From IMG/VR virus record IMGVR_UViG_2693429637_000011: DNA of 64,000 nt, one strand, 5' to 3'. The position numbers and the translations under genes are program-made. A model generated the notes under the pieces. It worked only from the letters and a program-made list of their open reading frames with translations, was not told the DNA's origin and searched no databases. Below, piece after piece: positions 3,684-62,546 of this stretch (positions are counted from its first letter, which is position 1; each line of letters begins with the position of its first letter). The DNA is from a virus. Taxonomy: Duplodnaviria > Heunggongvirae > Uroviricota > Caudoviricetes.

Positions 3684-4010
3684 TTGTATATCGGAGTGAA
3701 GAGAAAAATGACGATCACAAAACAACGTGTAGAAAAAATCATATATCGCCATGAAATGGGACTGAACAGCGATGTCACTGCCGAAGAGGTTTATGACCTG
3801 GCTGTACTGGCGCTGAATTTATCAAATATCGCAAACCTGAAGCGATACGAGCTTGATATGGATGGTTGCGACTCGTGCGGTCAGGATTGTGGCGCGGATA
3901 TGACTGAAGATCCTGATGGTGATTATGTCCTGTTTGATGACGTGGTTAAGTTGTTTGAGCTTGATACATTCGAAAGCCCAGCAAAGGAGGCAACCAGTGA
4001 GCAAGATTGA
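3684..4010 (+). CDS. Hypothetical acidic protein
   Basis: ORF with coding-like composition in operon context; stop overlaps next gene start. Confidence 0.4.
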   Translation: MYIGVKRKMTITKQRVEKIIYRHEMGLNSDVTAEEVYDLAVLALNLSNIANLKRYELDMDGCDSCGQDCGADMTEDPDGDYVLFDDVVKLFELDTFESPAKEATSEQD

Positions 4011-4485
4011 TTATCAAAAGCTTCGTGAAATCGCTGAAAAAACAAAAATTGCTGGTGAAGCACCTGTAATGCCTTTCGATCAGCGAATTAATGCGCTTAA
4101 CGATTTTATGAAGCACTTTTCGCCAGATATCGCGCTGGCATTGTTGGATGAGATCAACGCATTAGAGGAAACGCGTATCAACGATGTTTGCCGTATTGCG
4201 GAACTAACAAAACAACTGGAGTTGGCAAAATCAAAACTCAACGAGCAGCGTGAGTATTACGAGGGCGTTATCTCGGATGGAAGTAAGCGCATAGCAGAGT
4301 TAGAAAGTGATTCTCAGGCACAAAAGTTAGTTGAAGCAATCATTGTTGCGATAGAAAACGAACAGGAACGTCTTTTTGATGAAGATTACCTAATGGATTC
4401 GAAAGAATGCATTGACGTAATTCGTGAAGAAGTAAAGCGATGGAATGATTCCCGCGCCGCTGGCATTCGCATCAAAGGAGAGTGA
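3997..4485 (+). CDS. Ead/Ea22-like protein
   Basis: GTG start after RBS aaggagg; [15 protein letters not shown]... N-terminus resembles lambdoid Ead/Ea22 family; coiled-coil rich. Confidence 0.55.
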
Positions 4486-4486
4486 G

Positions 4487-4810
4487 ATGACCACATCGCA
4501 TTCTGCAATTACCCAGAAAAAAGCCTTCCACATACTCGAACGATTAGAGGCGCTTGCTACGGAGGAGGAGATATCCCCGGAGAAACTGGTTGAGTTCAGC
4601 CGTGTGATATTGCGTCGCAAGAACGATATGGAGCGGCTGACATCTGGCGCTCCATCCTTATCAGTCAGGCGAACACTTTGTTGCAGCTTCTGCAACAAAT
4701 CCCAGTACGCCGTCAAAAAGTTAATTGCTGGGGACGCCGTTTTCATCTGCGACGAGTGTGTGGATGTGTGCAACAGAATTATCCGGGGAGAGAAAGAGGG
4801 ATCAGCATGA
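4487..4810 (+). CDS. ClpX-type zinc-binding-domain-like protein
   Basis: C-terminal [34 protein letters not shown] closely resembles the N-terminal C4 zinc-binding domain of ClpX; RBS aaaggagag upstream. Confidence 0.55.
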
Positions 4811-5337
4811 AATTTTCCAAATTTTCTGAGTTGGTGAATCGTATTTTGTCCAACAACCACAGCCATCGTCGCGATATGGATGTAACGATCGTTGTTCATT
4901 CGCCTGGTCGCATCGGTTCAACACCATCAGTTGAGGTTCAGTCAATTCAGGCGGGTTTTGATTGGGATGCCGGGAAAGTGATGATTTTTCCAGCACAGCC
5001 ACTGACCACGCTAACACCGGAGCAGGTTGCTGATATCACTGATAGTGTGCGCAAAGGTCAGTCTTGGCACGCGTATCAGGAATACAAGAAGCATAAAGAG
5101 CAGTTGGAAAAATTGTCGATGGAGTTGGAAGCCGCTAAACAGCGGGAAAAAGATCTGTTTATGGAAAATGTTCGACTTAAGTCAGGTATAGCCGGTCTGA
5201 TACACCTCGGTATTCGATATGCGGATGTTGAGGTCATGAAAATTGCTGGAGATGCCCAGCTTTCTACTCCATGCACTGACAGCATCATAAACAGCATTGC
5301 AGCAGGCATTTTCACCAAAGAGGGGGCAGCACGATGA
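4807..5337 (+). CDS. Hypothetical protein
   Basis: ATG overlaps upstream stop (ATGA); 176 aa. Confidence 0.45.
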
Positions 5338-53700: not shown

Positions 53701-54441
53701 TCACATACCCTGACGTCCAACGTTTGACCGCCAGCTCTCCCAGTTAAAATTCACCCAACGACCACCGTTCATGGTCATCCGGTCCATAATCCTCTCACCA
53801 AGAAGCGTGCTCATTGCGGCATGATTCAGGTTTGTCAGCATCCCGACACTGCGCAGTGATGCCGTCCGGCGGTCAACAATCTGGTGCAGTACCACCTGCT
53901 CGTTTTTCGTCTCACGCTGGATGCCAATTTCGTCAAGAACCAGGAGGTCCACTTCGCACAGTTCACGCAAAAATTTTTCTCCTGACAGTCCGTCGTCATA
54001 GCTGGCATGTAACGCGCTCATCACATCCGCCACGGTGACCACTATCACGGATTTACCGGCCTTCAGCAGACGATTACCCACAGCCGCCGCCAGATGATTT
54101 TTTCCGGTTCCCGGATTCCCGCTGAACACGAAGTTTGTATAACCGGTCATCAATTCATCGACAATGGATTTCGCCTGGCTCAGAGCATGGCGCTGACCGT
54201 CGTTCTGCACCCGGTAGTTCCCGAATGAGCACTTCCTGTGAAGCGGCTGGATGCCCGCACGGTTCAGGATTTTTTCAACCCGCGCCTGATGATTCAGGCG
54301 GTTAATTTCCTCGCTGCGCTTACGGCCCTCAGCCAGTTGCCATTTCCGCCATTCGTCGGTCGTCCGGAACGGTGCTGCCACGTGCGGTGGTGCCAGACGG
54401 CGCACCCGTTCAAGAATCCCTCCTGTCGAAATGTTTTTCAT
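53701..54441 (-). CDS. DnaC-like replicative helicase loader
   Basis: Walker A GNPGTGKNHLAAAVG and DEIG Walker B as in DnaC. Confidence 0.7.
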   Translation of the reverse strand: MKNISTGGILERVRRLAPPHVAAPFRTTDEWRKWQLAEGRKRSEEINRLNHQARVEKILNRAGIQPLHRKCSFGNYRVQNDGQRHALSQAKSIVDELMTGYTNFVFSGNPGTGKNHLAAAVGNRLLKAGKSVIVVTVADVMSALHASYDDGLSGEKFLRELCEVDLLVLDEIGIQRETKNEQVVLHQIVDRRTASLRSVGMLTNLNHAAMSTLLGERIMDRMTMNGGRWVNFNWESWRSNVGRQGM

Positions 54442-54447
54442 GGCTGA

Positions 54448-55530
54448 TTACCCCCTGAAACCCGGCGGAATTTCGGTGTCCGGTTCAGAAATGTGATTCA
54501 CGCAACGCAGGCTGACTGCGCCAGCCTTCGGCAGCGACCACGGATTTTCGAAATTCCTGTTCGGGCCAAAAAACGTCGATGCCTGCTGAACAAATTCAGT
54601 TCCCGCTTTCCCGGTAGCCTCCAGGTATCTTGCGTAACGCCTCACGCCATCCAGCACGACATCCGGTGACACCCCTTCGCGTAATCTGGCCCTCCAGGCA
54701 TTGAACGCGGATTTCTTCGGGTTTGACCCTGCCCGATGCGGATATTCACGCCAGACCCGTTCGAACACGTCAGGATAATCAACTCGTCCCGCAGACGGTC
54801 CCGGCATCGCCCGGGTTAACCCAATCGGCTTCCCGCTCATCGCGGAATCGGCTTCAGGCTGCTGCGGTTGGCGTTGTTGCTCCGGTTCGACGATCAGCAC
54901 CTGCTGCACACAACGCCCGGAATCTGCTTCCGGTGTCGTGCCATCTGGTCCTGGACGTTCAGTCAGAACAGGACAAAAATCCCCCTGTGGGTCCGTGGCG
55001 ATTTTTTCGCCATGGACCAGAAGGGTTTTATCCCTTTCCTGTTCCTGTTCCTGTTCCTGTTCTTGGCTTGAAAGGGGCTCTGAAGGGGCTTCAATTTTCC
55101 GACATGATTCACGTCTGACATCCAGGTGGAAATCATCCTTATATCTATCATAAAATGATGATAAAAAAGGATTTTCCAGCAACGCGGAATATTCATTTCT
55201 TACCCCAGCACAACGGTTATCGCCAGGTTTCAGCGATTCACCAACCTGCCATGCTGCCATTTCATGCACCCATACAACCTCAGAATCATGGTCATAGCTG
55301 CAAAAACCAGCCTCGCAAGCCATTTGAAGCCCCTTAGAAGCCCCTTCAGGAGCAAGTCCGGTTTCGTGAGCAATGTACAAAACAGGCAGGTAATAAAGGC
55401 CCAGCATATTGGAATGAGGCGAGGTCATCATATACAACGCCACTACCATACATTCCGGACCAGACTTCCTTAGTTTTCGCCCTGTATCGCCTAACCAGAA
55501 CTGAGGTGAAATTGTTGCGTAATTACGCAT
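54448..55530 (-). CDS. O-like replication initiation protein
   Basis: 360 aa upstream of DnaC-like gene; internal (ttcctg)4 tract encoding EQEQEQEQ; synteny cII-O-P. Confidence 0.5.
   Translation of the reverse strand: MRNYATISPQFWLGDTGRKLRKSGPECMVVALYMMTSPHSNMLGLYYLPVLYIAHETGLAPEGASKGLQMACEAGFCSYDHDSEVVWVHEMAAWQVGESLKPGDNRCAGVRNEYSALLENPFLSSFYDRYKDDFHLDVRRESCRKIEAPSEPLSSQEQEQEQEQERDKTLLVHGEKIATDPQGDFCPVLTERPGPDGTTPEADSGRCVQQVLIVEPEQQRQPQQPEADSAMSGKPIGLTRAMPGPSAGRVDYPDVFERVWREYPHRAGSNPKKSAFNAWRARLREGVSPDVVLDGVRRYARYLEATGKAGTEFVQQASTFFGPNRNFENPWSLPKAGAVSLRCVNHISEPDTEIPPGFRG
55026..55052. repeat. Hexanucleotide tandem repeat inside O-like gene (possible ori-associated)
   Basis: ttcctg repeated four times in tandem. 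Confidence 0.5.
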
Positions 55531-55550
55531 AGTCCCCTCGCATACAAGAT

Positions 55551-55740
55551 TTACTCCATACCGCAGACGGTCCCGGTATCTCCCGGGTTAACCCAATCGG
55601 CTTCAGGCTGCTGCGGTTGGTGTGACTGCACATTGGTGTGACTGCACATCTTCACAGACGGTCCCGGTATCTCCGGGTTAACCCAATCGGCTTCAGGCTG
55701 CTGCGGTTGGTGTTGTTGCTGGCGAAATTCTTCCAGATGT
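55551..55740. repeat. Two tandem ~45-bp direct repeats upstream of O-like gene that also match an internal O segment (~54780-54880)
   Basis: cagacggtcccggtatctcccgggttaacccaatcggcttcaggctgctgcggttggtgt occurs twice, and once with variation inside O. Confidence 0.55.
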
Positions 55741-55783
55741 GGCAGAATTATTCCCGTGTATTGCTCCATGCCCTGCCTGAATA

Positions 55784-56080
55784 TCAGATATTCATCAGGA
55801 TTTGCTCAGAACGTCCGGCCCCAACCGGACGTTTTTTATTTGCATGAACGTTAATGGCATGCTGGAAAGCCCGGCTGATCGGACTGATATCAGATGCCAT
55901 CTGGAACGCGCATAAAATCGCCGCGATGTATCGCCAGTCGGTACGACTGACCTTCGATTCATGGCAGCCAATCATCTTCGCCAGTCCCCTTTGCGTCAGA
56001 GCTGACAGGTTGATAAGTAAATCCGTTTCAGCGCGATCGATATCGCGCTGTGACAGTTTGCTGTAACTTGTTTGTGACAT
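55784..56080 (-). CDS. cII: CII-like transcriptional activator
   Basis: 98 aa; C-terminal ...KKRPVGAGRSEQILMNI resembles lambda CII. Confidence 0.65.
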   Translation of the reverse strand: MSQTSYSKLSQRDIDRAETDLLINLSALTQRGLAKMIGCHESKVSRTDWRYIAAILCAFQMASDISPISRAFQHAINVHANKKRPVGAGRSEQILMNI

Positions 56081-56196: not shown

Positions 56197-56421
56197 TTAT
56201 TCAGCCTGGTTCGGATGAGGAAACAGGTGCGGTAAGTCCGGGCGAATTTCGTAAGCCTTAACCTGACCATTGGTGGCATTAACGATAGCGAAAACTTTTT
56301 CAGGAGAAACTTTTCCGCCTCGCAACCATTTATGAACAGCGGGCTGTGATACGCCGCAATCAGCTGCAAGTCGTTTTTGACTGCCAACAATATTCAAGGC
56401 TCGCTGAATCACTAAATTCAT
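56197..56421 (-). CDS. cro: Cro-like HTH repressor
   Basis: 74 aa from ATG 56421 (RBS gagg); HTH QKRLAADCGVSQPAVHKW; divergent from cI. Confidence 0.6.
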   Translation of the reverse strand: MNLVIQRALNIVGSQKRLAADCGVSQPAVHKWLRGGKVSPEKVFAIVNATNGQVKAYEIRPDLPHLFPHPNQAE

Positions 56422-56531
56422 GAGCATACCTCTACAGCAAATAAAGCATAACCAAAAATAACATGAGTTATACACCAGGGCAATAACAATTGTTGTTTTA
56501 CTTTTGATAACCGTGGTTATAGATTACAGGT
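56422..56531. promoter_or_regulatory. OR operator/promoter region between cro and cI
   Basis: Palindrome ataaccgtggttat (56507-56520) matching OL palindrome ataacttaggttat; divergent genes flank. Confidence 0.5.
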
Positions 56532-57239
56532 ATGAAAACATTCGCAGAAAGACTAAATGCCGCCATGAGTTCAGCCGGGTTGTCACAAGCACAACTTGCA
56601 GACATGGTGGGGGTATCACAACCAGCCATACAAAAGATGTCATCTGGTAAAACAACCGGATCACGTAAAATGGTCGAATTAGCCAACGCGTTAAGAGTTC
56701 GCCCTGAATGGCTAAGCTCTGGTATAGGGTCAATGAGACCACAGAGCGCAGAAGAGCCATCTAATGCTCGGGAATCATCTTTAAAAGCTATCGCCTGGGA
56801 TGATCATCAAAATGATAATGAAGAATTTGTTGCGCTCCCCCTTCTAAATATTTCACTTTCAGCTGGCGGAGGAAGTTGTGCATTGGAGGAGTCCGCAGAA
56901 TTCTCTCTAGTTTTTAGGCGCTATTACCTGAAAAAAATGGGAGTTCCAGAAAAAGCGGCAAAGTTGGTCAGGGTTGTTGGGCAAAGCATGGAGCCAACAC
57001 TCCATGATGGTGATGTGGTGGGGGTAAACACGCAAGATACGAGCATCAGGGATGGTAAAACATATGCAATTTGCCAAGCTGATTTGTTAAGGGTAAAAAC
57101 GCTCATAGCCACGCCAACATCGGTAATTATCAGATCGATAAACCGCGAAGAGTATCCTGATGAAGTAATGAACAGAGAAGAATTCTACAAAAACGTAAGA
57201 ATCATAGGGCGAGTGTTCTGGTCATCACATAGCTGGTAA
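56532..57239 (+). CDS. cI: CI-like prophage repressor (HTH plus S24 LexA-like peptidase domain)
   Basis: N-terminal HTH; C-terminal ...VGQSMEPTLHDGDVV... and conserved Lys region. Confidence 0.85.
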   Translation: MKTFAERLNAAMSSAGLSQAQLADMVGVSQPAIQKMSSGKTTGSRKMVELANALRVRPEWLSSGIGSMRPQSAEEPSNARESSLKAIAWDDHQNDNEEFVALPLLNISLSAGGGSCALEESAEFSLVFRRYYLKKMGVPEKAAKLVRVVGQSMEPTLHDGDVVGVNTQDTSIRDGKTYAICQADLLRVKTLIATPTSVIIRSINREEYPDEVMNREEFYKNVRIIGRVFWSSHSW

Positions 57240-57392
57240 TCAGACTCCAACTGAACTTTTGCTATAAGAACACTCACGAAGAACGGCCTTTTATTGTGCT
57301 CAATACCACCGATGGTAAACCATTCGCCAAGTAGCCAATTCATAAAATGCCATTTCTAAATCCCCCCGGCTCCAGTGCCGGGTTTTATTTAC

Positions 57393-57659
57393 TTAATTAC
57401 ACAGTCGCATATCCTGAAGTAACACATCTATAGCTAACTTCACAGCGAGATCATCCAATTCATCATGGTGAAGCACTCGGATCATTCCCGCAATAGCATC
57501 TGCTGAAATAGCTTCCCCAGTAGCAATAACCTCAAGCAACGACACCCCTAGAATTTCGACTACCCGCTGGTGCAACACACCAAATTCCCCTTCGATTAAC
57601 ATGCAATCACCCATAACAATCAGCCTTTCCCCCTTGAAAATATCACGCGGATACCACAA
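57393..57659 (-). CDS. Hypothetical protein between cI and N, opposite strand
   Basis: 88-aa ORF; start abuts OL region. Confidence 0.3.
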   Translation of the reverse strand: MWYPRDIFKGERLIVMGDCMLIEGEFGVLHQRVVEILGVSLLEVIATGEAISADAIAGMIRVLHHDELDDLAVKLAIDVLLQDMRLCN

Positions 57660-57780
57660 AAAATAAAATATTTTTGTTATCAGTCATTTATAACGTTTTT
57701 CATAAAATGATAAATATAGTTATTGCACAACCAGATAACTTAGGTTATCTTCAATTCAACAGCAGGACGCTGGAAGCCAA
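57660..57780. promoter_or_regulatory. OL/pL operator-promoter region
   Basis: AT-rich; palindrome ataacttaggttat at 57735-57748. Confidence 0.45.
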
Positions 57781-57795
57781 ACGGAACAGATTGGC

Positions 57796-57837
57796 CGGCT
57801 CTTTAACATTGATGGACTCTCAACCTAACCGTTGAGA
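57796..57837 (+). promoter_or_regulatory. Candidate nutL (boxA-like plus boxB-like hairpin)
   Basis: cggctctttaaca then tctcaac-ctaacc-gttgaga hairpin upstream of N. Confidence 0.4.
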
Positions 57838-57947
57838 CCAAAATCTAAGTGGTTTTGGGGATGACGCGAATTTCAGTTGCAAGGCCGCGATCGAGAAGAA
57901 AAACACCTCGACGCGTCATACACCAAAGCCACTTAAAGGAGACCATC

Positions 57948-58253
57948 ATGGTAACCATAATCTGGAAAGAATCCAAAGGTACGGCAAAAAGCCGCTATAA
58001 AGCTCGCAGGGAAGAACTTATTGCAGAGCGGCGCAGTAGTGAAAGACTGACACGGAAGATTGCGCTAAAGATCTCTGGTTGCGTCGGAGCAGACAAAGCA
58101 GTATCACTCGGAAGCCTTCGCTGCAAGAAGGCAGAAGAAGTCGAGAGTAAACAGAACCGTATTTACTACCGCAAACCACGCAGTGAAATGGGTGTGACTT
58201 GCTCAGGCCGCCAGAAACAACGCGGAAAATCAATTCCGGCTTATTACGATTGA
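57948..58253 (+). CDS. N: N-like antitermination protein
   Basis: Arg-rich N-terminus (AKSRYKARREELIAERR); C-terminus ...GVTCSGRQKQRGKSIP resembles lambda N; RBS aaaggag. Confidence 0.7.
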   Translation: MVTIIWKESKGTAKSRYKARREELIAERRSSERLTRKIALKISGCVGADKAVSLGSLRCKKAEEVESKQNRIYYRKPRSEMGVTCSGRQKQRGKSIPAYYD

Positions 58254-58258
58254 GGTTA

Positions 58259-58543
58259 ATGATGAAGTTCAAATTGAACGATGAAGTTAAATGGTCAAGC
58301 TCATCAAACGGTGTAACGAAGGTAAAAATCGGGTTTATCGTCGAGGTGATTCCTCCTGGTGTCAACGTAAAAAAATTCGAACTAGGCCGTCTGCTAGATG
58401 CACCTGGCCTTCCGAGGAAAGAAGAGAGCTATATAGTTTGTGTAGGTTCAAGACCCGGATCTCGTGCCAAGCCAAAATATTACTGGCCGCGAGTTAATAA
58501 CCTGCGTCGATTACAACAAAAAACTTGCGCCCTTAAAACTTGA
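58259..58543 (+). CDS. Hypothetical early protein
   Basis: 94-aa ORF, RBS gagg, directly after N. Confidence 0.4.
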   Translation: MMKFKLNDEVKWSSSSNGVTKVKIGFIVEVIPPGVNVKKFELGRLLDAPGLPRKEESYIVCVGSRPGSRAKPKYYWPRVNNLRRLQQKTCALKT

Positions 58544-59218: not shown

Positions 59219-59674
59219 AAATTCACTCTCCTTACGGGGTTTGTAGTTGAGGAGTTCTCCACGGGTGAGGTGGAGATCGTGCGCCGGACACGGGTGAGTT
59301 CCTGCACTCTCAGTTTACTGAACAGACATTACCCTGAAAGCCAGGGTACTACACGAAAGCGCGAGGCGAAGACTCTTTCCCATAGAAGGATTGTCGTTAG
59401 ATTTCTTCGACCGTGCGCTTCCGGTTGTGAATAACAACATTGCTGTGTGTAACCCTTGGCGGATATCGGTTTGCCGATTGCTGATGTCCGCCCTTTTTAA
59501 AGTGAATTTTGTGATGCGGTGAATGCGGCTCAGCGCACGCGGAACAGTTAAACCGACAGGATGTCACGGAAAGTCATCGTCCCCTGACCCGGCGTTAATT
59601 GTTAACTGGTTAACGCCACCTGGAGGCACCAGGCACCGCATCAACAAAGTTCATTTGTGAAAATGGAGATAATT

Positions 59675-59896
59675 ATGATTGCTCATCACTTCGGAACTGA
59701 TGAAATACCACGTCAGTGCGTGACGCCTGGCGATTATGTTCTTCATGAAGGTCGGACATATATCGCTTCAGCAAACAATATTGAAAAGAGAAAACTCTAT
59801 ATTCGTAACTTCACAACAAAAACATGCATTACCGACTGCATGATTAAAGTTTTCATCGGGCGCGATGGCTTACCCGTAAAAGCAGCGTCGTTGTGA
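59675..59896 (+). CDS. Hypothetical protein (AT-rich cargo)
   Basis: ATG with ggag 8 bp upstream; 73 aa. Confidence 0.35.
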
Positions 59897-59979
59897 CGAG
59901 TAATAAAATACACCTTCCATATCTGTAACAGACAAGCCGAAATAAAACCGCATTAATTATCAATCACGGAAAAATCAAA

Positions 59980-60366
59980 ATGAAAGAACTTGCGCAAAAT
60001 GAAATATTTTCCAAAACCAGTCCTGATGCAATAAATGAACTCAAAGAAATTGCAGAACGCATCAGTAAAATATGCAAAGAATACAAAATCGACTTTGTAT
60101 TTTCTTTTTCAGTGCTTACAGAAGTTGGAAATAACGAATATAAGGACAGTCGTTTTGTTTTATGTGGGTTAAATGGCAAAACACCAAGCCCATATATTCA
60201 TGCTGCACGTGAAGTTGTCAGAAGCAACATTGGAGTACAACAAATCCATACACTTGCACAGGCTCTTGAGTTTGCAAGAGAAAATTCTGAGTGCGACTGC
60301 CCTGAATGCCAGCACGAAAAGGGAAAAACAACTCACAAAACAGCAAACCAGGCAACCTTCCACTGA
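59980..60366 (+). CDS. Hypothetical protein with C-terminal CxC...CxxC motif (AT-rich cargo)
   Basis: 128-aa ORF; ECDCPECQH motif. Confidence 0.4.
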   Translation: MKELAQNEIFSKTSPDAINELKEIAERISKICKEYKIDFVFSFSVLTEVGNNEYKDSRFVLCGLNGKTPSPYIHAAREVVRSNIGVQQIHTLAQALEFARENSECDCPECQHEKGKTTHKTANQATFH

Positions 60367-60473
60367 AATAAAAATCCGGCAGCGCAGGCTACCGGATTTC
60401 TCCCTGCGTCACCGTATTCGGAGAAATCAGACAAAGGGCCGCTAATTCTAATCCAGCCAGAGGTTTAAATACA

Positions 60474-62546
60474 ATGAGCGCTGATAAACAGACTTTTGCA
60501 CTACACTGCGAAGCAAAAAACGATAAAGTCAGAAAACGCCTTGGCATCAAAGGCGGTTTTTTCTGGACCGAGGCCAGAAAACTTTCTGTCGCAGTTTCCC
60601 GCTGCATTGCAGCCATGGACGATGCAGGCTACGACGAGGATGATTTCAAAAAACCCGTTCGCGTAAATTTCCCCGTCGTGAATGACCTTCCACCGGAAGG
60701 CGTGTTTGATACTGAATTCTGCAACCGCTATGAAAAAGGCGGTAACGATGGCATCACCATGATGGCTATCCCCTTCGATGACAACATCAACGGTGAAGAT
60801 GCCACAACTGCTGGCGATGACAACGATAACCTGGACGGAACTATTCCGGATGATGTGGAGAAAAGCGAATCCCCGGACAGCAACGATGACTGTTCTGAGT
60901 GTGAAATTCCCGTCGCCACTCTGAGCCTTACTCATCGCTTCCTTCACCTCTTCTTATTCAGCAAAGATGAAGATGGAAAATACCGGCATCATGCCACACC
61001 AGAACAACGCAATAACGTGATCCGTATGGAGATGGACACAGAGGACAGTTACCTTCAGAGCCTGCTTACTGCTGTGCGCGCCGCGCATCATGAACTGGAT
61101 AAACTGACGAACTATCACCTTAGTCGCCTGGCTGAATCTGTAGGGAAAGCATTCCCCCACTCTGCAAATCATCGCATCAGCCCGGCTGAATTCGACAAGT
61201 TCATTTCCACCTGGATGAAAACTGACTACCTTGATCAGGGCCTGCTGACAAAAGAATGGCAGAACGGAAATTATGTTTCAGGCATTACCCGTACGCCTTC
61301 CGGTGCTAACGCTGGCGGCGGAAATATTACCGATCGTGGTGAAGGATTCAAACATGATAAGACATCACTCGCACGAGATGTAGCCACCGGCGTTCTGGCC
61401 CGTTCAATGGATGTGGATATTTATAACCTGCACCCAGCACACGCAAAACGCGTTGAAGAAATCGTGTCAGAGAATAAGCCGCCCTTTTCTGTTTTTCGCG
61501 ACAAATTTATCGCCATGCCCGGTGGGCTGGATTATTCCCGCGCCATTGTGGTGGCTTCCGTGAAAGAAGCACCAATCGGCATTGAGGCCATCCCGGCACG
61601 CGTGACTGAATATCTCAACAAAGTGTTGACCGAAACCGATCACGCTAACCCGGATCCGGAAATCGTGGAAATTGCCTGCGGTCGCTCATCAGCACCGATG
61701 CCGCAGCGCGGAACAGCAGAAGGAAAACATGGCGATGAAGAAAAGCAACAAACATCGGACACAATGGCTAATGAACAGGCAGCGCCTGAATCAGTGGAAG
61801 AAATTCCAGTTAAACATAATGAGGACACGCAATCACTGGAAAATGTCTCATCTGTAGAAACGAAATACCAGGAACTGAGGGAGGAACTCAATAAAGCCAG
61901 GGAAAACATCCCCCCAAAAAATCCAGTCGATGCCGACAAATTACTGGCTGCCTCGCGTGGAGAATTCGTTGAAGGCATCAGTAACCCTGCTGATCCGAAG
62001 TGGGTGAAGGGGATCCAGACTCGCGACACTGAGGACCAGAATCAGCCCAAAGTGGAACAAATTGCCCCAGAAGCGGGACAAAACAGCCCGGATACGCAAC
62101 AAAACGGGCCAGAAGAGCAACAGCCAGGGCCAGTAATGCAACAGGAAGTGGAAAAGGTTTGCACCACATGCAGTCAGAACGGTGGCGGCCATTGCCCTGA
62201 CTGTGGTCCAGTAATGGGAGATGAAACTTACGCTGAAACTTTTGGAGAAAATGACGCCGCTGATGGAGAAGACTCAGCACAAACTGAGGAGAAGATCATT
62301 CAGGAAAACTCTGTTGATGCCGCTCAGGAGGGCGAAACCGTTGTTCAGAACGAGCCAGGCAGTGATACGTCCGGCGATGACGCCAATTCTGAGCCAGTAA
62401 CTCTCGACTGGAAAAGACAGCTCGTGATTGCCGCCGTCTATGGTTTGTGCGCCAACCCCGCATGTATAGCCACAGCGCCAGCAATCCCTGATATCGCCAT
62501 CATGATTGCCAACAGGCTTGAAAATTTCGAAGGTGATAAATCATGA
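60474..62546 (+). CDS. Large acidic protein (690 aa) of unknown function immediately upstream of gam
   Basis: RBS agagg; long acidic low-complexity tracts; [15 protein letters not shown] cluster; hydrophobic C-terminus; stop overlaps gam start. Confidence 0.55.

Follow-up and report, generated by a model that had tools for sequence, protein, structure and literature searches.

A probable moron-type accessory gene, so far uncharacterised, in the cI-N interval of a lambdoid prophage

Morons of the HK97/HK022 type were reportedly described by Juhala et al. in 2000 as a gene flanked by its own promoter and terminator. The interval between the repressor gene cI and the antiterminator gene N of lambdoid phages is a hot-spot of mosaic diversity and is occupied by rexAB in lambda and by bstA in BTP1 (PMC8585504, PMC7067206). 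Exclusion and abortive-infection genes are known to accumulate there. The third described system relevant here is the regulatory connector YmgB, which acts by direct binding of SpoT, feeding into the Rcs system (PMC10704370). We analyzed a stretch of 64,000 nucleotides, from now on referred to as the window, which carries a lambdoid prophage with a small gene between cI and N. As stated in the original prediction, made from the sequence alone, this interval corresponds to the rexAB slot of lambda. In relatives of the small gene, the slot carries defence cargo such as BstA. The small gene is an uncharacterised accessory gene of the expected kind, namely a prophage moron located in the cI-N interval.

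Gene map and coding sequence of the small gene

The cI-N region of the window shows 100% identity to E. coli FORC_069 and 99% identity to Stx-converting PA28-type phages (Traversvirus), while the DNA of the N region is 91% identical to the nutL/N region of phage 21. An opposite-strand ORF is found between cI and N at the originally predicted coordinates and the families of both neighbours could be confirmed (Table 1). The small gene is convergent with cI and divergent from N, both neighbours being encoded on the opposite strand, with the start codons of N and the small gene 346 nt apart. The proposal that it is transcribed divergently from pL is likewise supported.

Several further features were observed in the surroundings. 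A 52-aa ORF at 57185-57343 (-), overlapping the 3' end of cI, is without a family match in any library and was treated as probably spurious. A nutL-like boxA (GGCTCTTTAACA) and a boxB hairpin (TCTCAAC-CTAACC-GTTGAGA) are located within 57797-57837, between pL and N. The O-like replication gene (region 54448-55770) encodes a (QE)n run and has repeated peptide/DNA units (…QQPQQPEADW/S…PGPS…) in common with short ORFs just upstream; the repeats of this region are possibly iteron-like origin repeats. The pL operon of this Stx-type prophage, at about 59600-62546 (identified via locus L004, 6436-8521), encodes a Rac-like kil and a RecE-family exonuclease, the PA28 record instead having the lambda exo/bet/gam set.

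The small gene had been described as an 88-aa ORF. Such an ORF does exist mechanically, but its TTG at 57659 is merely the first start codon after a stop, and the CDS is most likely the 69-aa version annotated by PGAP. The phrog_3946 profile and the homologues begin at residue 20-21 of the 88-aa ORF, and relatives at 66%, 44% and 32% identity (metagenome proteins, the Salmonella P22-like phages ST104, epsilon34 and S107, and Klebsiella prophages) are 66-68 aa long with a first Met equivalent to 57602. Based on these homologue starts, the PHROG alignment and a conserved promoter motif within the extension, the true start should lie further in than the TTG, and the extension is probably an untranslated leader plus promoter. 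An alternative ATG at 57614 would yield a 73-aa version, which is annotated in OP797663. A Shine-Dalgarno-like sequence precedes the favored start, and homologues carry GGA or GGG 7-9 nt ahead of their start codons.

Table 1 Features of the window discussed in the text
Feature	Position	Strand	Basis or remark
Replication genes	53701-55530	-	
cII	55784-56080	-	
cro	56197-56423	-	
cI-type repressor	56532-57239	+	Peptidase_S24 + HTH_3; RefSeq label XRE family regulator
GC-rich hairpin terminator	57365-57382		Terminator scan; between cI and small gene
Most likely CDS, 69 aa + stop	57393-57602	-	PGAP, WP_024166114.1
Mechanical 88-aa ORF, TTG start	57393-57659	-	ORF list
5' extension of mechanical ORF	57603-57659	-	Counterpart absent in homologues
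Shine-Dalgarno-like GGGTGAT	57606-57612	-	Read from sequence; ~7 nt aligned spacing to ATG 57602
Predicted extended -10, TGaTATTTT	57637-57645	-	Conserved motif; predicted transcript start ~57630
A/T tract + IHF-like core	57658-57690 (core TATCAGTCATTTA, 57678-57690)	+	Between small-gene promoter and OL
OL operator-like site, 2 mismatches	57690-57703		Pattern search
OL operator-like site, 1 mismatch	57710-57723		Pattern search
OL operator-like site, perfect ATAACNNNNGTTAT	57735-57748		Pattern search
Probable pL, TTGCAC - 17 nt - TATCTT	57723-57751	+	Read from sequence; lambda analogy
N antiterminator	57948-58253	+	phrog_271, E 4e-35; weak PF25694 match; relatives' annotations

Codon alignments of homologues analyzed by the Nei-Gojobori method gave dN/dS values of 0.06-0.32 at dS values ranging from 0.4 up to about 2 or saturation. 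This purifying selection on the reading frame argues that the small gene encodes a protein, and frame and length (66-69 aa) are maintained across genera at 30-60% identity. Judged by these sequence comparisons, the small gene is a genuine protein-coding gene. Among the 50 E. coli genomes sharing this DNA, nearly all have the ORF annotated as a hypothetical protein, and in one it is frameshifted.

Some allelic variation was observed. A G-rich spot at 57543-57554 (-), aligned with L001 and L103, reads GGGGTGT in the window and G7 in PA28-type phages. At this poly-G tract, one base is added to the G7 in strain 2014C-3338, which frameshifts the small gene, and one metagenome allele encodes an additional Gly. 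This variation could reflect a slippage-prone tract or sequencing error. A truncated 48-aa product is found on 27 contigs, compared with at least 1000 for the intact protein. Further, the allele of phage g341c has a premature stop and that of one viral contig a read-through.

The product is a member of phrog_3946 (PHROGs v4; E 5.6e-30, 104 bits, ORF residues 21-85 on profile positions 2-67 of 67), a membership that says nothing on mechanism. A profile search identified 603 proteins, all labelled hypothetical, in Escherichia, Salmonella, Klebsiella, Enterobacter, Citrobacter and related Enterobacteriaceae, and the identical 69-aa protein is present on at least 1000 contigs. Carriers include Stx-converting phages, Salmonella P22-like phages and Klebsiella prophages. 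The gene is thus already contained in RefSeq/GenBank as a hypothetical protein as well as in a PHROG family, so that the novelty assumed in the original prediction is not supported. The homology search and structure prediction it had proposed as a check returned this family and a helix bundle, but no Pfam, NCBIfam or PADLOC match. Specifically, Pfam (E up to 10, window protein plus four homologues) and NCBIfam gave no match, a profile search of PDB sequences only chance matches (E > 0.1), and an exhaustive phmmer search of 1.8 billion representatives seven matches, all within the family and none to distant relatives. One homologue is labelled 'DUF2767' in UniRef, a label not reproduced by the Pfam version used, and no literature on DUF2767 was found. 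No study of the small gene emerged from the literature when its accession, PHROG number and context were used as search terms, and no transcriptome was found for a lysogen carrying it; the BTP1 transcriptome papers concern a phage without the gene.

Cassette limits and the pL control region

Among 66 unique regions upstream of the coding sequence, at least 57 have a TGnNAnnnT motif at a distance of 36-43 nt from the start codon; counted anywhere in the scanned segment from -60 to -30, it occurs in 60 of 66, compared with 15.6 expected from shuffles of this segment. Other subfamilies have TGcCATACT, TGcGATACT or TGcTATGCT in the same place. The small-gene promoter is thus predicted from a motif, and a -35/-10 consensus scan detected neither it nor pL. 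At the other end, the GC-rich hairpin (-15.6 kcal/mol, z -2.25) lies where the convergent transcripts of cI and the small gene both end, with the T-run at 57383-57390 serving the cI strand. As an intrinsic terminator, it is predicted to work well for cI and less well for the small gene. A AAAACCCGGC...GCCGGG hairpin is located directly 3' of the small gene in most homologous loci.

Pairwise blastn comparisons between phages of unrelated immunity revealed a common mosaic block that spans only about -62/-87 to +205/+240 relative to the start codon and contains the extended -10 motif, the GGA/GGG ribosome binding site, the coding sequence and the GC hairpin. Conversely, the small gene is absent from prophages whose cI is 79% identical, whose cro is near-identical (called so from adjacent RefSeq accession numbers) and whose OL/pL region is homologous. 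One of them has a same-strand cargo gene instead, and homology with the window resumes at about 57655-57660. Absence or disruption of the ORF in close relatives with conserved flanks had been named beforehand as a sign against the gene, and the outcome is mixed: the ORF is absent from these prophages but annotated in nearly all of the E. coli genomes mentioned above. The absence from close prophages indicates that the small gene is dispensable and accessory, not spurious, and a predicted promoter, gene and hairpin that move as one mosaic unit correspond to the definition of a moron. That this is a real, autonomous accessory cassette appears very probable to us.

The 5' end of the 88-aa ORF lies about 30 bp from the outermost OL site, confirming its position beside the OL palindrome. 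Allowing up to one mismatch, ATAACNNNNGTTAT is found in the window only at 56458, 56483 and 56507, between cI and cro, and at 57710 and 57735. The probable pL overlaps the latter two sites and scores below the threshold of the consensus scan. The A/T tract between the small-gene promoter and OL is followed by an IHF-like core that is one of seven WATCARNNNNTTR matches in 64 kb, and we take this site to resemble the IHF site upstream of lambda pL, an analogy by which an IHF role may be proposed. In the prophage lacking the small gene, A/T tract, IHF-like core and operators are retained together with pL, indicating that all three belong to the pL module.

The original prediction had suggested that CI controls the small gene. 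An early gene silent in the lysogen and turned on at induction or infection, with a promoter overlapping OL3 and a function early in lytic growth, for example in anti-defence or host take-over, would fit this suggestion. An alternative -10, TATAAAT at 57692-57686 (-), does overlap the outermost operator-like site with the same geometry as the probable pRM -10 (TATAGA) over OR3, the small gene always adjoins OL/pL, and anti-defence functions are common among small acidic proteins made early by phages. However, TATAAAT is not conserved with the gene and stays with the pL module in the prophage lacking it, and the operator-like site at 57690 deviates from the operator consensus at two positions. 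Across immunity types, conservation together with the gene ends 62-87 bp upstream of the start codon, which includes the extended -10 and excludes the operators. This conserved -10 is about 45 bp away from the nearest operator-like site, a gap at which direct occlusion by CI is not expected, and it remains with the gene in loci whose repressors and operators belong to at least five unrelated types. Direct CI control is thus not supported by the sequence comparisons, and we consider an early gene under CI control unlikely.

The variable cI-N slot and homologues at other loci

About 90 loci were oriented on the small gene and N-like and cI-like genes located by tblastn. In nearly all loci with a recognisable N, this gene is found 330-400 bp upstream on the opposite strand and belongs to one of at least three types (phage 21-like, P22 gp24-like and H-19B/epsilon34-like). 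The cI gene, of at least five unrelated types, is located downstream on the opposite strand at a distance ranging from 365 nt in the window to about 3100 nt. The same gene order is found in annotated records and in two metagenome contigs. In relatives, the space between hairpin and cI is filled by cargo, namely BstA, a P63C-domain protein, a ParA-like ATPase, a BamE-like lipoprotein, a nucleotidyltransferase-like pair or unknowns, while the window has no cargo between small gene and cI. The small gene is a constant flank of a variable slot, not cargo. A conserved partner gene was also considered and rejected, as the convergent neighbours in ST104, a Klebsiella phage and locus L079 are mutually unrelated. 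In Salmonella phage S107 (L007, 3350-4117), the adjoining cargo is BstA (PADLOC E 9e-100), labelled only as hypothetical in the record.

Given this location, the small gene might be a superinfection-exclusion or abortive-infection determinant, or else a regulator or self-immunity partner of the slot's defence cargo. Both the occupation of the slot by rexAB in lambda and bstA in BTP1 (PMC8585504, PMC7067206) and the relatives in which the gene flanks BstA, P63C-domain, ParA-like or nucleotidyltransferase-like cargo speak for such a role. Yet these cargo genes are mutually unrelated, and since the window has no cargo, the small gene cannot be an antitoxin or immunity gene dedicated to a single one of them. 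The small-gene product matches none of the families of PADLOC-DB v2 at E up to 1. Further, the product, being soluble, 69 aa long and devoid of a membrane segment, is unlike the known single-gene exclusion proteins. The original idea of a small exclusion gene in the place of rexAB conflicts with the same observations, the gene being the constant flank and not the variable cargo, and we see only a slim chance that exclusion or a partnership with defence cargo is its function.

Divergent homologues, at 52-60% identity to the main types, are also encoded at the tail-fibre end of other prophages (L079 3359-4195; L085 3145-4195; L098 and L100 1657-2707). They directly follow secreted nuclease genes (PLD-like, or Endonuclease_NS with overlapping stop and start) and precede DinI-like genes, making a nuclease-immunity role conceivable for this subgroup. 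Another homologue is found on plasmid pPAT9B02 of Pantoea sp. At-9b (L096; coordinates noted are 3992-4195 (+) and 4762-4965 (-)), adjoining an IS remnant and outside any recognisable prophage. About 570 bp from it lies an unannotated 67-aa ORF without Pfam match that aligns weakly and in the same register to the AriR family (P 0.008) and to the small-gene family (P 0.04). Occurrence at such other loci indicates that the small gene is not mechanistically tied to pL.

The tail-fibre-end arrangement also bears on the possibility that the product in general is a DNA mimic or a nuclease inhibitor or immunity protein, which its very acidic character (net -8 to -12 in 67-69 aa) would suit. This is very improbable in our view, as AriR is similarly acidic, the associations with nucleases amount to only two independent cases, the gene has no nuclease beside it in the roughly 90 immunity-region loci or in the window, and fold searches gave no match to Im7/Im9, Ocr, Gam or Ugi-type proteins. 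That the block is not a gene but pL regulatory DNA or a recombination linker with an incidental ORF, as its location exactly at a mosaic junction, the low AF2 confidence and the rare frameshifted or truncated alleles might suggest, has a negligible probability considering the low dN/dS despite synonymous divergence up to saturation, the frame kept across genera, the homologues away from pL and an Rfam search with nothing relevant across 57000-58300.

Protein product, proposed function and comparison with known systems

The 69-aa product has a net charge of -8 and a pI of 4.4 (net charge -12 for the ST104 type) and carries neither signal peptide nor membrane segment. Two independent AF2 models show a three- or four-helix bundle at low confidence (pLDDT 64 and 67). 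When these low-pLDDT models were used for Foldseek searches of the PDB, YmgB (2oxl_A) was retrieved at rank 2 and rank 1 with TM 0.50-0.55, E of about 2 and a probability of 0.41-0.47, while a search against viral predicted structures returned nothing at E < 1. An hhalign comparison with the AriR-family alignment was in register over helix 1-loop-helix 2 (37 columns, score 17.1) at a probability of only 1-3%; P values were 0.05 and 0.015, and the score was reached by 2 of 200 column shuffles. The Pfam YmgB model (PF10798) gave no match even at E up to 10. It should be noted that a resemblance to YmgB had been suspected before the fold and profile tests, from a YmgB sequence that agrees with PDB 2oxl, so that these tests are not fully independent of it. 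In a manual alignment outside the hhalign span, the position of YmgB Arg74 is not conserved; an R74G mutant of YmgB was employed in work on how binding to SpoT is lost (PMC10704370). The resemblance to YmgB/AriR is thus a consistent but weak lead and does not amount to membership. By this analogy, the product may tentatively be viewed as a small protein-binding adaptor, a suggestion we consider less likely than not.

We hypothesize that the small gene is a moron-type cassette of about 300 bp, consisting of a sigma-70 extended -10 promoter, the 69-aa CDS and a hairpin that also closes the cI operon. The cassette would have its insertion site between the terminator of the cI operon on one side and the IHF/OL/pL control region on the other, with transcription directed away from pL. 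As the sequence comparisons show, it moves as a mosaic block among lambdoid and P22-like prophages of Escherichia, Salmonella, Klebsiella, Enterobacter and Citrobacter, whatever their repressor, N type or cargo. With its own predicted promoter, not occluded by a CI operator, the gene would probably also be expressed in the lysogen. An acidic helix bundle without enzyme or DNA-binding signature suggests that the product may bind another protein in the manner of YmgB/AriR, the target being a host or a phage protein. Taken as a whole, including lysogenic expression and adaptor action, this explanation seems to us reasonably likely. The strict position beside pL could mean, however, that the gene acts in early-gene control and not on the host. 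In its boldest form, the cassette would encode a phage-borne YmgB/AriR-like connector, made in the lysogen, that binds a SpoT/Rcs-type host signalling protein or phage early regulators, a proposal that is speculative and rather unlikely to hold in full.

One side of the cI-N hot-spot is often bounded by a conserved, unstudied small gene with its own predicted promoter. Expression in lysogens together with binding of a host regulator would make its product a lysogenic-conversion factor of wide distribution, and an action on early phage control would supply a piece so far missing from the lambdoid switch. In either case, the small gene is a useful landmark for finding cargo genes in prophages. 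Should the connector proposal be true, hundreds of enterobacterial prophages, among them Stx-converting phages, would share a hitherto unnoticed means of influencing host stress physiology or the lysis-lysogeny switch, and the fixed place beside pL would represent a coupling to the early control region.

YmgB lies in the chromosomal ycgZ-ymgABC locus of E. coli. The small-gene product resembles members of the YmgB/AriR family (PF10798) in the size of its predicted folded core (about 64 aa), its acidic character and its three predicted helices, and differs from them in having no Pfam match and in being encoded in a prophage instead of a chromosomal context. Compared with classical morons of the HK97/HK022 type, the locus is alike in its predicted promoter-gene-hairpin unit, in being present or absent between conserved neighbours and in forming one mosaic block. 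It differs in that prophage expression is here a prediction and the hairpin is predicted to be a good terminator mainly for the opposing cI transcript. The rexAB locus of lambda, the bstA locus of BTP1 and the stk locus of 933W have the orientation of cI and are transcribed together with it from pRM, whereas the small gene is encoded on the opposite strand behind its own predicted promoter. Further, it is much smaller, has no defence-family match and remains constant beside the variable slot. It has in common with rexAB, bstA and stk the interval, dispensability and carriage by prophages, and in relatives it directly adjoins BstA.
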